A program made the position numbers and the translations under genes. Shown in pieces: positions 7,761 through 16,773 of a stretch of 64,000 nt of DNA (its first letter is position 1; every line of letters begins with the position of its first letter). The stretch is taken from assembly GCF_054482525.1 (NCBI RefSeq), contig NZ_CM137006.1. One strand, 5' to 3'. The notes under the pieces are model-generated. The model was not told the DNA's origin and ran no database searches. It saw only the letters and a program-made list of their open reading frames with translations.

Positions 7761-7794
7761 TAAAAAGCGCCATCTAACGATGGCGCGTCTGGAA

Positions 7795-12409: not shown

Positions 12410-14065
12410 TTAACTCATCACGCGGTCGTCAACATACTGACGTTTATCGGGCGCTGGCGGGAAATACTGATACAGCCATGTTTCACTGATAGCGTCGCCC
12501 TGACAACGCAGATACATCCGCATATCGACCGGATCAGTGGAGTCCGAAGTCGGATACCAGTCAAACTGAATACGATAACCATCAATGGGTTCAATATAGA
12601 GAATTTCGATTTGCTTCGCTTCCCCACTGGAAAGCGTAATCACCGGCTCAATGCCTTTTGGCGCGGCAGCTTTCAGATCACCACCAACGAAATCGACGGC
12701 AAAACGACGCGCCCATTTTTCGGGATAGTGTTCACCTGGAGCCCAACCTTCCGGGAAACCGCCCATGCCGGTACGCGTCGCCATAACGCGCGCTAATGGG
12801 CAATGAACAGGCGGTTGCGCACTCCAGTACAGACGATACTGGAATGCAAACTCATCACCCGCTTTTACAGCTTTTTCTGGCTGCCAGAAGCAGACAATGT
12901 TATCCAGCGTTTCGCCCGTTGTTGGGATTTCCATCAGGCCGATGGTGCCCTTACCCCACTTGTTACGCGGCTCCACCCACAGACTTGGGCGTTTGTTATA
13001 CCAGCCCATAATGTCCTGATAATGGGAGAAATCACGATCCAGTTGCAATAAACCAAACCCTTTCGGGTTGTTGTCGGTGTAAGCATTGAACTGCAATTTT
13101 TGCGGATTATTCAGCGGACGGCAAATCCACTCGCCATTGCCCCGCCACATGGACAGACGATCTGAGTCATGGATTTGCGGATGAATGGTGTCGCACATCC
13201 GACGTTCATTAGTACCGCAGCTGAACATGCTGGTCATCGGCGCAATGCCCAGCTGTTTAATGTCTTTGCGCGCATACAGGTGATTTTCCACATCCATAAT
13301 CACCTGACTTTTCTCACAATGGATAGTGAACTTATAGGCACCAGTAATGCTGGCGCTATCGAGCAACGCATAAACGGTAAAGGTGGTTGCCCCCGGTTTT
13401 ACCGTATCAAACCAGAAGGCGGTAAAGTCGGGGAACTCTTCTTTACTGTCGGTGTAAGTGTCGATCGCCAGGCCGCGAGCCGACAAACCGTATTGATATG
13501 TATCATCAACCGCGCGGAAATAACTCGCGCCGAGGAATGATACGACATCACGGCGCGCCAGTTCGGGGGCTTTAAACACGCGAAAACCGGCAAAACCGAG
13601 ATCGCTTTGCCCTTCTAATTGTTTGGTATCAACACCCGCATCGTTGTATTTGAACAACTCCGGGCGAAAGTGAATTTCACGCGCCAGATGTGTTGCGGGA
13701 TCAACAGAAAACATACGAACGCGGCGACGGAATCCCATTCCCATATGGAAGAACTGAGCGTCCAGTTGACGGTTCTCAACGTTATGCCAGAGCGATTTTT
13801 CGGCGTCGTATTGAATACTGTTATAAGCCTGCGGCGTCATTGTCGCCAGAGTGTCAGGTAACGGACGCGGCGCACTACGCCACGCGGTTTGCGCTAAGTC
13901 GTGCGCCATTGACTGTAGAATGGAGAAGTCAAAACGCTGGGTTTGCCCGTCGGCAATATCAGAATCTGCCGCGAATGCCGCCTGAGAAAAAAGAGAAGCA
14001 ATGCCGCTGGTACCGCACACGGCGGCCATAGCCATTGAACCTTTAATAAATCGTCTACGATCCAT
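12410..14065 (-). CDS. opgD: Glucans biosynthesis protein D (periplasmic, Tat-exported)
   Basis: 551-aa ORF with twin-arginine signal [32 protein letters not shown]. Confidence 0.95.
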
Positions 14066-14289
14066 ACCTGAAAGTGAGTCCTTCTGGTGTTGTGAATGGT
14101 CCCGCGCTGGTCGTTTTCAGCGGCAAGAAAGTGCTTATTTATGACCGCTCACTCTAGACAATATTTATTAATAATCCAATTGTTGAACTCAGAGAATATG
14201 CATTAATCGGCAATTTTTTTATGTCGATGGGATGAGCCTGATTCGTTTGTAAAATCAGGCAAATTTTTGCAAAGGCGGATGGTCAGAAT

Positions 14290-15633
14290 TTAAAGCAAAC
14301 CACAGCGACGTTTACTGCGTTCTTCCGCTTCCTGATAAAGCTGGAACTCATCCAAAACCGGGCAGCCCAACGCCTGCTCAAATGCTTCGCGACTGGCATT
14401 ACCGTGACTGCGTGCCTGCGTTTCATTACCCAGATTTGACTGGAAGATCCCCGCCGCGCTAACAGGCAAGAAATCTTCATAGGTAATGGGTTGCGCCACT
14501 ACCCAACCACGTTCAATTAAGGGCTGTGGATCGTCTCCGGAATGAATCGCCTGACGATGCGCCTCACCTGAAGGCGTCAGACGGTACCGGAACCATGCCA
14601 ACCCTTGCTGACGCATTAAAAACTCACTGTCAGGAAAAGTGCGGAAGGTTTCCTGTAAATGCATTTGGTGAGTGAGATTATCCTGACCGGTTCCAGCGTT
14701 ACGCAGAAGATCATCATACAGTTGTCGCCCTTTCGGCGTTAATGCCACACCACGCTGCTCTATTTCACCAAAGCGCGCGGTATGCGTACCCTGTTTCTGC
14801 CCTGCAAACAACACCGTCTCTTCCAGTGCTTTAAAGCTGGTCTGGCGTAGTAAAATAGGTACCTCGCGGCGCGGCGGCCCTTCGATCAGAATTTTGGGTT
14901 CAATCCCGCATTCAGGCATCATCGACTGCACCCGGTCAATATCCAGCGTACGTGGCGTCAGGTGGTTGATATGGCATCCAGGAAAACAGACCACATCAGC
15001 AATCAACCGATGTTCGTTGTGCAAGGCGCGATAGGTTTCTTCATCTACCGTTGCTGACTGGTGCCAACGAAACGTTTCCAGGGCTTCCTGCACAAACTCC
15101 TGTGCCTGTGTTTCGTTAAAACCGCCCCGCTGCTCATATTCCTCTAACAGTTGTCGACAACGTGGGGTGAAGATATCGCGCTGACGCAGAATCTCCGCCG
15201 CTTTCTGGCGCAAAATTTCGTTCTCGATAAGCTCAAGGCGGAGTAATGAAGTAAAAACGCGGAAGGGATTACGCGCCAGAGAAGCATCATCAATGGGCCG
15301 AAATGCTGTCGAATGTACCGGCACCCCCGCCTGCGAGAGATCGTAATAGCTCACCGGGTACATCCCCATAATGGCAAACATCCGCCGAAGAGTAGCAAGC
15401 TCTTGTGCAGTCCCAACACGAATCGCCCCATGACGTTCAACATTCAGTCGCGCCAGCTCGTCTGCATTTACCATTTTTTCGTGCAGTTGAGGATTGTTTT
15501 CCAGCACAGCCAGATTCACATCAGCTACCAGTTCCAGCAGCGTGCCGTACTGCGGAACTTCTTGCTGGTACATGGCTGACATTGCCTGCGAAAACTGTTC
15601 CCGAATCTCATCCGCCGTGATGCTGTTCGCCAT
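14290..15633 (-). CDS. ydcJ: DUF1338-family protein of unknown function
   Basis: 447-aa ORF MANSITADEIREQFSQAMSAMYQQEVPQYGTLLELV...; position between opgD and ydcI. Confidence 0.85.
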   Translation of the reverse strand: MANSITADEIREQFSQAMSAMYQQEVPQYGTLLELVADVNLAVLENNPQLHEKMVNADELARLNVERHGAIRVGTAQELATLRRMFAIMGMYPVSYYDLSQAGVPVHSTAFRPIDDASLARNPFRVFTSLLRLELIENEILRQKAAEILRQRDIFTPRCRQLLEEYEQRGGFNETQAQEFVQEALETFRWHQSATVDEETYRALHNEHRLIADVVCFPGCHINHLTPRTLDIDRVQSMMPECGIEPKILIEGPPRREVPILLRQTSFKALEETVLFAGQKQGTHTARFGEIEQRGVALTPKGRQLYDDLLRNAGTGQDNLTHQMHLQETFRTFPDSEFLMRQQGLAWFRYRLTPSGEAHRQAIHSGDDPQPLIERGWVVAQPITYEDFLPVSAAGIFQSNLGNETQARSHGNASREAFEQALGCPVLDEFQLYQEAEERSKRRCGLL

Positions 15634-15849: not shown

Positions 15850-16773
15850 ATGGAAAAAAATAGTCTGTTTAGTCAGCGCATCCGTTTGCGCCACCTTCAT
15901 ACATTCGTAGCTGTCGCACAACAAGGAACTTTGGGGCGCGCGGCTGAAACCCTTAATTTGAGTCAACCTGCGCTCTCTAAGACATTGAATGAACTGGAGC
16001 AACTGACGGGCGCTCGCTTGTTTGAGCGTGGTCGTCAGGGGGCGCAACTTACCTTACCCGGCGAACAATTTTTAACGCATGCAGTCAGAGTTCTTGACGC
16101 CATCAACACTGCCGGACAGTCGCTTCATCGTAAAGAAGGTCTTAATAATGATGTCGTCAGGGTTGGTGCACTACCTACTGCGGCACTGGGGATATTACCT
16201 TCGGTTATAGGTCAGTTTCATCAGCAACAAAAAGAGACGACCTTGCAAGTTGCGACAATGAGTAACCCTATGATTCTTGCGGGTTTAAAAACCGGGGAAA
16301 TCGATATCGGCATTGGTCGGATGTCAGATCCTGAACTGATGACCGGGCTTAATTACGAACTGCTGTTTCTTGAATCGCTGAAGCTGGTTGTCCGCCCCAA
16401 TCATCCGCTACTTCAGGAGAACGTAACGCTAAGCCGGGTGCTGGAATGGCCGGTCGTTGTATCACCAGAAGGCACTGCGCCACGCCAGCATTCAGATGCA
16501 TTAGTGCAGAGCCAGGGATGTAAAATTCCTTCGGGTTGTATCGAAACGCTGTCTGCTTCGCTATCTCGTCAACTTACGGTTGAATACGACTACGTGTGGT
16601 TTGTCCCTTCTGGCGCGGTAAAAGACGACCTGCGTCATGCCACGCTGGTGGCCCTGCCTGTTCCGGGACATGGTGCAGGCGAACCGATTGGAATACTGAC
16701 CCGCGTAGATGCAACGTTCTCTTCTGGTTGCCAGTTGATGATTAACGCTATTCGAAAATCAATGCCGTTCTGA
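15850..16773 (+). CDS. ydcI: LysR-family transcriptional regulator
   Basis: 307-aa form from ATG 15850 (MEKNSLFSQRIRLRHLHTFVAVAQQGTLGRAAETLNLSQPALSKTLNELE...); track ORF starts 47 codons upstream. Confidence 0.9.
   Translation: MEKNSLFSQRIRLRHLHTFVAVAQQGTLGRAAETLNLSQPALSKTLNELEQLTGARLFERGRQGAQLTLPGEQFLTHAVRVLDAINTAGQSLHRKEGLNNDVVRVGALPTAALGILPSVIGQFHQQQKETTLQVATMSNPMILAGLKTGEIDIGIGRMSDPELMTGLNYELLFLESLKLVVRPNHPLLQENVTLSRVLEWPVVVSPEGTAPRQHSDALVQSQGCKIPSGCIETLSASLSRQLTVEYDYVWFVPSGAVKDDLRHATLVALPVPGHGAGEPIGILTRVDATFSSGCQLMINAIRKSMPF

Follow-up and report, generated by a model that had tools for sequence, protein, structure and literature searches.

Stem-loops at RNA 3' ends that lack a U-tract correspond to the 'I-shaped' terminators of WebGeSTer, and protective hairpins reportedly sit at the trimmed 3' ends of Rho-terminated mRNAs. 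Bidirectional intrinsic terminators are said to consist of an A-tract, a hairpin and a U-tract placed between convergent genes. REP elements have a stem base that resembles GCCTGAT...ATCAGGC. The hairpin described here lies between ydcJ (hglS) and opgD (mdoD), in a window of 64,000 nucleotides that is the whole stretch of DNA analysed. We tentatively read it, with a probability of about 0.4, as a U-tract-less 3' stem-loop of ydcJ mRNA that arose in Escherichia at a gene-loss scar and overlaps the upstream regulatory DNA of opgD. Its role would lie in the formation of the ydcJ 3' end.

The two flanking genes are both on the minus strand, as the preliminary description had stated, and are arranged in tandem, not convergently. 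In the following, sense denotes the strand of ydcJ and opgD. The features of the region are:

14290..15633, minus strand: ydcJ/hglS, 2-oxoadipate dioxygenase/decarboxylase family (Pfam HGLS, E 3e-161).
14275..14289, minus strand: hypervariable 15-nt spacer that adjoins the ydcJ stop (10 of 15 sites variable among Escherichia species).
14261..14274: supposed terminator T-run, AAATTTTTGCAAAG on the plus strand and CTTTGCAAAAATTT in sense (0 of 14 sites variable in 8 Escherichia sequences).
14253..14260: hairpin arm AATCAGGC (plus strand), in which sense GCCTGA(T) is Escherichia-specific.
14244..14252: hairpin loop CGTTTGTAA (plus strand), shortened to 7 nt by a U.G pair in sense; it holds the conserved sense TTTACA.
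14236..14243: hairpin arm GCCTGATT (plus strand), within the ancient block upstream of opgD; sense GA(A/T)TC(A/G)G(G/T)C is kept in genera without the hairpin.
14217..14253, minus strand: ancient conserved block upstream of opgD, sense TTTACAAACGAATCAGGCTCATCCCATCGACATAAAA, at about -73 to -110 from the opgD TSS.
14143..14179, minus strand: opgD promoter and start (-35 TTGGAT, 14179..14174; -10 TAGAGT, 14156..14151; TSS 14143).
12410..14065, minus strand: opgD (mdoD), periplasmic glucan biosynthesis protein (Pfam MdoG, E 8e-181).

The preliminary description had reported a hairpin at 14236-14268 with an 8-bp stem followed by AAATTTTT, and both the sequence and the coordinates proved exact. The two arms form eight perfect pairs, four of them G-C, around a loop of 9 nt; on the sense strand the arm at 14236-14243 reads AATCAGGC and the arm at 14253-14260 reads GCCTGATT. 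Directly 3' of the stem the plus strand continues as AAATTTTTG, positions 14261-14268 being AAATTTTT, and the sequence that follows the hairpin on the ydcJ-sense strand is UCAUCCCAUCG. The hairpin lies 29 nt past the ydcJ stop codon and at -93 to -117 relative to the mapped opgD TSS. The window is E. coli DNA. MG1655 carries an identical copy at 1496661-1496685, and the 401 nt around the hairpin show 100% identity to E. coli PCN033 and 98.3% to K-12-type strains. A second, imperfect inverted repeat is present at 14206-14228 (ATCGGCA-N9-TGTCGAT on the plus strand, seven pairs including one G.U); it has a counterpart in the C. freundii complex (ATCGA-N12-TCGAT) and is absent from Salmonella.

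Perfect hairpins, counted as stems of at least 8 bp with loops of 3-10 nt, number 24 in the window versus 7.4 +/- 2.4 in dinucleotide shuffles. Hairpins followed by a T-run (at least 5 T in 8 nt, beginning 0-3 nt past the stem) number 9 on the two strands versus 0.8 +/- 1.1 in shuffles, an enrichment of ~11-fold. The class exceeds chance, yet its member between ydcJ and opgD is the least stable of the 24, with a plus-strand energy of -9.1 kcal/mol compared with -13.6 to -19.7 for the controls tested. These numbers bear on the explanation that the hairpin is a chance palindrome without function, persisting through its overlap with constrained opgD upstream DNA and the low divergence within Escherichia. 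That ~7 of the 24 perfect hairpins are expected by chance, and that this one is the weakest, agrees with such an origin, whereas the ~0.03 such hairpins expected in the 224-nt spacer and the excess of the hairpin-plus-T-run class argue against it. A consensus terminator scanner made no call at the hairpin on either strand, and on the plus strand its rule was missed on loop length alone (9 versus a maximum of 8). An Rfam scan of 13500-15000 (E <= 10) gave no match on the hairpin, the RefSeq records have no annotated feature at it, and its sequence was not found in a literature search. The absence of an Rfam match, of an annotated RefSeq feature and of a mapped RNA end is consistent with a chance palindrome, which we consider unlikely but a serious rival.

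Conservation was followed from single genomes to the genus. Of 5417 complete E. coli genomes, 5401 share the same 50 nt around the hairpin, and the remaining 16 show one or two differences in this stretch; the hairpin is also identical in all 108 of 108 metagenome contigs. The stretch occurs at one place per genome, and a REP or other dispersed repeat was rejected as a candidate on this ground; a search of the window for further copies of the dyad, allowing up to 3 mismatches, found none beyond chance. Among matches to the ydcJ-opgD spacer in E. coli genomes, 5 of 5420 are carried by plasmid-labelled records. The hairpin is kept in E. albertii, E. whittamii and the cryptic clades. Counted over 8 Escherichia sequences that include these lineages, the variable sites are 10/15 in the 15 nt after the ydcJ stop, 0/14 in CTTTGCAAAAATTT, 2/25 in the hairpin, 4/25 in the next 25 nt and 20/145 in the rest of the spacer up to the opgD ATG. 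Constraint sets in sharply at CTTTGC, 15 nt past the ydcJ stop, and is unbroken to opgD; the conserved stretch reaches past the hairpin both ways, to CTTTGCAAAAATTT and TCATCCCATCGACAT, and constraint on the hairpin is not clearly stronger than on the DNA around it. Since the conserved stretch exceeds the hairpin, and the hairpin varies at 2/25 sites against 20/145 upstream of opgD, the conservation is explicable without an RNA role, and constraint at the DNA level on the opgD regulatory region can account for it.

The variants found in the hairpin are one in the loop (Escherichia sp. E1V33) and a C>T in the Escherichia-specific arm of L005 (Escherichia sp. MOD1-EC7003), that arm being otherwise invariant. 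Its invariance across species, next to a spacer diverged at 10 of 15 sites, speaks against a chance palindrome; the similar variability of hairpin and neighbouring non-hairpin DNA speaks for one. In E. coli MS 200-1 (L001 4239-6935) an IS21-family element (istA/istB, ISSso4-like) is inserted at the opgD-proximal base of the hairpin, at ~14233-14236, with sense GCTC apparently duplicated on both sides; the insertion parts the hairpin and ydcJ from the opgD promoter.

The two strands are not equivalent. The sense-strand hairpin gains an extra U.G pair, giving 9 bp, a 7-nt loop and -10.7 kcal/mol compared with 8 bp and -9.1 kcal/mol on the plus strand. In folds of 50 nt, the sense strand reached z = -3.9 with 0 of 200 shuffles as stable, and the plus strand z = -1.8 with 12 of 200. 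The sole stem substitution, the C>T (sense strand) in L005, leaves a U.G wobble and -8.0 kcal/mol in sense, while on the plus strand it creates a C.A break and leaves -2.6 kcal/mol; being one substitution in one genome, this is a hint. No covariation was detected: 8 of 9 pairs never vary, no pair has changed on both sides, and shuffle controls equalled the observed values, a result that would also suit a chance palindrome. The asymmetry weakly favours the ydcJ-sense strand, and the association with ydcJ is suggestive because of the position 29 nt past its stop, the ninth U.G pair and the wobble-compatible variant.

The preliminary description had oriented the hairpin as a terminator of plus-strand transcription, possibly marking a short unannotated plus-strand transcript. 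Such a terminator would halt antisense or pervasive transcripts of the opgD 5' region before ydcJ, or would end a short non-coding RNA. In its favour are the five T within 8 nt of the stem, the scanner rule that fails only on loop length, and membership in the nine hairpin-plus-T-run sites where 0.8 are expected under the relaxed rule. The U-tract does not abut the stem, however: the plus-strand tail is AAAUUUUUG, with AAA between stem and T-run, and its T-tail score is 0.80 versus 3.1-4.5 for canonical terminators in the window. A d'Aubenton-Carafa-type score was -67 on the plus strand, the worst in the window, and -53 on the sense strand, whereas canonical terminators in the window scored positive, for example +36 at 7767-7786 on the minus strand. 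The T-run is, moreover, older than the hairpin, lying within a block that predates it, and the L005 variant breaks the plus-strand hairpin and spares the sense one.

Nor was a transcript found for such a terminator to end. Weak plus-strand promoter-like sites exist, namely TTGAAC-15-TACGAT (ending at 14061), TAGACA-17-AATTGT (14183) and TTAATA-18-GAGAAT (14197), but a PWM scan placed plus-strand candidates at background frequency, ~1 per 285 nt per strand, and the scanner found no plus-strand sigma-70-like promoter. There is no plus-strand gene at the hairpin. A small gene at 14096..14206 (a 36-aa plus-strand ORF, antisense to the opgD promoter and 5' UTR, ending 30 nt before the hairpin and the sole such ORF ending nearby) was considered and rejected, its length not being conserved: the K-12 version has 31 aa, those of other Escherichia extend across the hairpin and reach 63-65 aa, and Citrobacter ranges from 6 to 76 aa.

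SMRT-Cappable-seq size-selects long transcripts, and RNAs of 60-200 nt could escape it, which leaves some room for a short plus-strand RNA. Its published tables (Yan et al. 2018) list no reverse-strand TSS or transcription unit at MG1655 14966xx-14968xx. The 3' ends by which a terminator might be recognised are also missing from published Term-seq (Adams et al. 2021): none was listed at the hairpin on either strand, the tables of this one study, covering three conditions and limited by expression, passing from 1495034(-) straight to 1498877(+). Nor does the ydcJ-opgD locus appear in the TERMITe supplements. With a weak stem, AAA before the T-run, no same-strand unit and no 3' end, the plus-strand terminator is not supported, and we regard it as improbable; as for the short transcript that was to accompany it, promoter candidates do not exceed background, the ORF is not conserved, and neither a TSS nor a 3' end is listed.

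The same Term-seq study reports a very strong 3' end (score ~80,000) at MG1655 1495034 on the minus strand (Adams et al. 2021). This position corresponds to 15887 of the window (plus strand), 37 nt into ydcI (ATG at 15850) and just past a small hairpin, GCGCATCCGTTTGCGC, which suggests premature termination or processing of ydcI mRNA.

The history of the locus was traced in 80 Enterobacteriaceae loci with YdcJ orthologues, one genome per species. In most genera another gene begins ~40 nt past the ydcJ stop. In Salmonella this gene encodes a 502-aa carboxylesterase (PF00135, E 6e-100), and opgD lies ~1.8 kb further. An example is found at L025 4394-5902, from Salmonella enterica subsp. arizonae, and most other loci among L011-L084 are arranged likewise. 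The carboxylesterase gene is missing in Escherichia and in the C. freundii complex, where ydcJ adjoins opgD across spacers of 224 and 193 nt, respectively. The end points of the deletion differ between Escherichia and the C. freundii complex.

An alignment of the 260 nt 5' of opgD showed that the ancient block accompanies opgD whether ydcJ, the carboxylesterase gene or another gene sits upstream. In sense it reads TTTAC(A)-N3-GA(A/T)TC(A/G)G(G/T)C-...-TC(C/T)CATCGACA(T/G)AAAA and takes in, of the hairpin in E. coli, one arm together with the loop; it matched no known binding motif. The block (TTTACA..GAATCAGGC..TCCCATCGACATAAAA) was found in Salmonella, Citrobacter, Kosakonia and Pseudocitrobacter. 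On the other side of the hairpin, sense CTTTGCAAAAATTT has a homologue in C. sedlakii and C. amalonaticus: there CTTTGCAAAAGTTGAA comes immediately after the carboxylesterase stop, at a site without any hairpin. The plus-strand T-run is the complement of this older CTTTGCAAAA block that follows the carboxylesterase gene. What is specific to Escherichia amounts to ~7 nt only (sense GCCTGAT); the arm GCCTGA(T) is absent from Citrobacter, Salmonella, Kosakonia and others. Because only these ~7 nt are new and the other pieces are older, the terminator-like look is, as judged from the alignments, put together from two older pieces that a gene loss brought side by side, and the run of five T on the plus strand is the complement of an inherited A-run and not a terminator tail.

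The position of the ancient block also bears on a reading at the DNA level, in which the dyad at -93 to -117 belongs to the opgD regulatory region and makes up all or part of a putative site where a nucleoid protein or a dimeric regulator would bind; of the two half-sites, the ancient conserved block would supply one, and the other would be an acquisition of Escherichia. Half the repeat and the loop do lie within the block conserved upstream of opgD across genera, the constraint within Escherichia begins at CTTTGC and runs unbroken to opgD, and the location relative to the mapped TSS suits sites of upstream activators or nucleoid-associated proteins. In form, the dyad with its 9-nt spacer also agrees with a T-N11-A LysR-type box, and a LysR-type gene, ydcI, lies two genes from it. 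The partner half-site, however, is missing in Salmonella, C. amalonaticus, C. koseri and Kosakonia: the dyad as a whole is confined to Escherichia, in contrast to one half-site and the opgD promoter, which are widely conserved. No second copy of the dyad occurs in the window, the ydcI-ydcJ spacer included, and neither ydcJ nor opgD is named in the main text of the paper on YdcI ChIP-exo; a literature search turned up no binding data for the dyad. We consider an element of this kind somewhat unlikely, yet a serious rival.

Two specific sites were tried and rejected. A YdcI operator was dismissed because no similar dyad is present in the ydcI-ydcJ spacer and no literature support was found. The tandem consensus of CpxR is GTAAA-N5-GTAAA, and the match GTAAAATCAGGCAAA (GTAAA-N5-GCAAA, 14249-14263, plus strand) agrees at 9 of 10 positions; with 8 such sites in the window versus 3.7 expected it is at chance level, and it is not conserved outside Escherichia.

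For opgD, TTGGAT-17-TAGAGT is the best promoter match in the spacer, its PWM score being in the top 0.007% of window positions, and with TGTC just 5' of the -10 hexamer it is a sigma-S-like candidate. The sequence TTGTCTAGAGTG at this promoter is near-invariant from Escherichia to Klebsiella and Kosakonia. The arrangement ATTGGATTATTAAT...TTGTCTAGAGTG in the opgD spacer is kept across many genera, beyond the need of a plain promoter. SMRT-Cappable-seq mapped a forward opgD TSS at MG1655 1496778 (Yan et al. 2018), which corresponds to 14143 of the window, 8 nt past the -10 hexamer. The units reported are opgD, opgD-ydcH and opgD-ydcH-rimL, with reverse TSSs for ydcI (Yan et al. 2018); the tables contain no ydcJ unit and no ydcJ-opgD unit. 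Since no ydcJ transcription unit was detected, ydcJ was probably too weakly expressed for the lack of listed 3' ends at the hairpin to be judged. Of this neighbourhood, genomic SELEX for RpoD reported the ydcI/ydcJ divergent spacer only, and a literature search found no paper linking ydcJ with opgD.

For the favoured ydcJ 3' stem-loop, these data can be arranged as follows. Escherichia lost the carboxylesterase gene between ydcJ/hglS and opgD, and the loss joined ~15 nt of old ydcJ-downstream spacer, the esterase-downstream CTTTGCAAAA... and the conserved DNA upstream of opgD. Complementarity to part of the ancient block (sense ...AATCAGGC) then arose through ~7 new nucleotides (sense GCCTGAT). 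If the element acts as RNA, it would do so on the minus, ydcJ-sense, strand, as a 9-bp U-tract-less stem-loop 29 nt past the ydcJ stop. Such a structure would mark the ydcJ mRNA 3' end or shield it, whether by terminating transcription weakly and in a non-canonical way or by stopping 3' exonucleases once Rho has ended the transcript, and would limit read-through into the opgD promoter ~100 nt downstream.

Several observations point to this ydcJ stem-loop. A stable sense-strand hairpin soon after the stop was found (29 nt, 9 bp, -10.7 kcal/mol, z -3.9), and 29 nt is a spacing typical of 3' stem-loops. Transcription of opgD starts separately, at a TSS 93 nt past the hairpin, and no listed unit joins opgD to ydcJ. 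In those related genera whose ydcJ has no carboxylesterase gene behind it, a hairpin directly follows the ydcJ stop: canonical terminators in L035 and L057, and a GC-rich stem without a U-tract in L041. These cases fit the idea that a stem-loop closes ydcJ wherever no further gene follows it in its unit. Against the stem-loop are the sense strand, which has no U-tract (UCAUCCCAU) and a strongly negative d'Aubenton-Carafa-type score, the lack of covariation, and the lack of a 3' end at MG1655 1496xxx in the Term-seq data, although ydcJ appears barely expressed.

The preliminary description had also proposed that ydcJ uses a bidirectional terminator in reverse. The ydcJ side of this proposal comes closer to the favoured explanation, the sense-strand position and folding being suggestive, and the bidirectional side does not. 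A true bidirectional intrinsic terminator would serve ydcJ one way and antisense transcription the other; the hairpin does fold on both strands, and an A-run precedes it on the sense strand, as bidirectional terminators have. The ydcJ-sense side carries UCAUCCCAU and no T-run, the T-run being confined to one flank, the flanking genes are in tandem and not convergent, both strands score far below the canonical terminators of the window, and 3' ends are mapped on neither strand, which together make this reading highly improbable.

The RNA and DNA readings could also be combined. After the gene loss, ~7 nt complementary to the ancient operator-like block of opgD may have produced a dual-use element, at once an RNA insulator and a putative two-half-site DNA element, although we think this quite doubtful. 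If it were true, the sense-strand RNA would insulate the sigma-S-like opgD promoter from ydcJ read-through, a regulator would have acquired a new site with two half-sites, and the locus would let one trace how a deletion scar gave rise to a regulatory hairpin de novo. In more sober terms, the hairpin exists and is fixed throughout Escherichia, and it is ordinary: two genes read in the same direction flank a gene-loss scar that carries a weak stem-loop, and evidence of plus-strand termination was not found; nothing in it would surprise a specialist. At most it would sharpen the picture of where, in E. coli, the ydcJ/hglS transcription unit gives way to that of opgD. The analysis also places the opgD promoter (TTGGAT-17-TAGAGT, TSS 14143) together with its conserved upstream block, and it offers a caution for scans based on sequence only: a gene deletion can join older conserved pieces into a hairpin-plus-T-run look without making a terminator for the strand concerned.

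Compared with known systems, the hairpin resembles REP/BIME elements in its stem base, GCCTGAT...ATCAGGC, and differs from them in being single-copy, with an AT-rich interior and no REP tail. With LysR-type T-N11-A operators it shares an interrupted dyad (TGATT-N9-AATCA) with a 9-nt spacer near ydcI, but the dyad is absent in genera that keep ydcI-ydcJ, and the ydcI-ydcJ spacer has no related site. Like a canonical intrinsic terminator it has, on the plus strand, a perfect 8-bp stem-loop and five T that end 8 nt past the stem. It departs from that class in its AT-rich stem, its 9-nt loop, where 3-8 nt is typical, and the three A before the T-run, in the lack of a same-strand gene, conserved ORF, credible promoter or mapped 3' end, and in a T-run inherited from a block that has no hairpin beside it in Citrobacter. 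Bidirectional intrinsic terminators likewise have a symmetric hairpin that can fold in both transcripts and an A/T-rich flank, whereas here the A/T run is on one flank only and the genes are co-directional. From U-tract-less 3' stem-loops the hairpin differs in its modest stability, in having no mapped 3' end or compensatory change, and in its overlap with DNA that is otherwise conserved; it resembles them in lying on the sense strand 29 nt past a stop codon, in having no U-tract there, and in being more stable in sense than in antisense.
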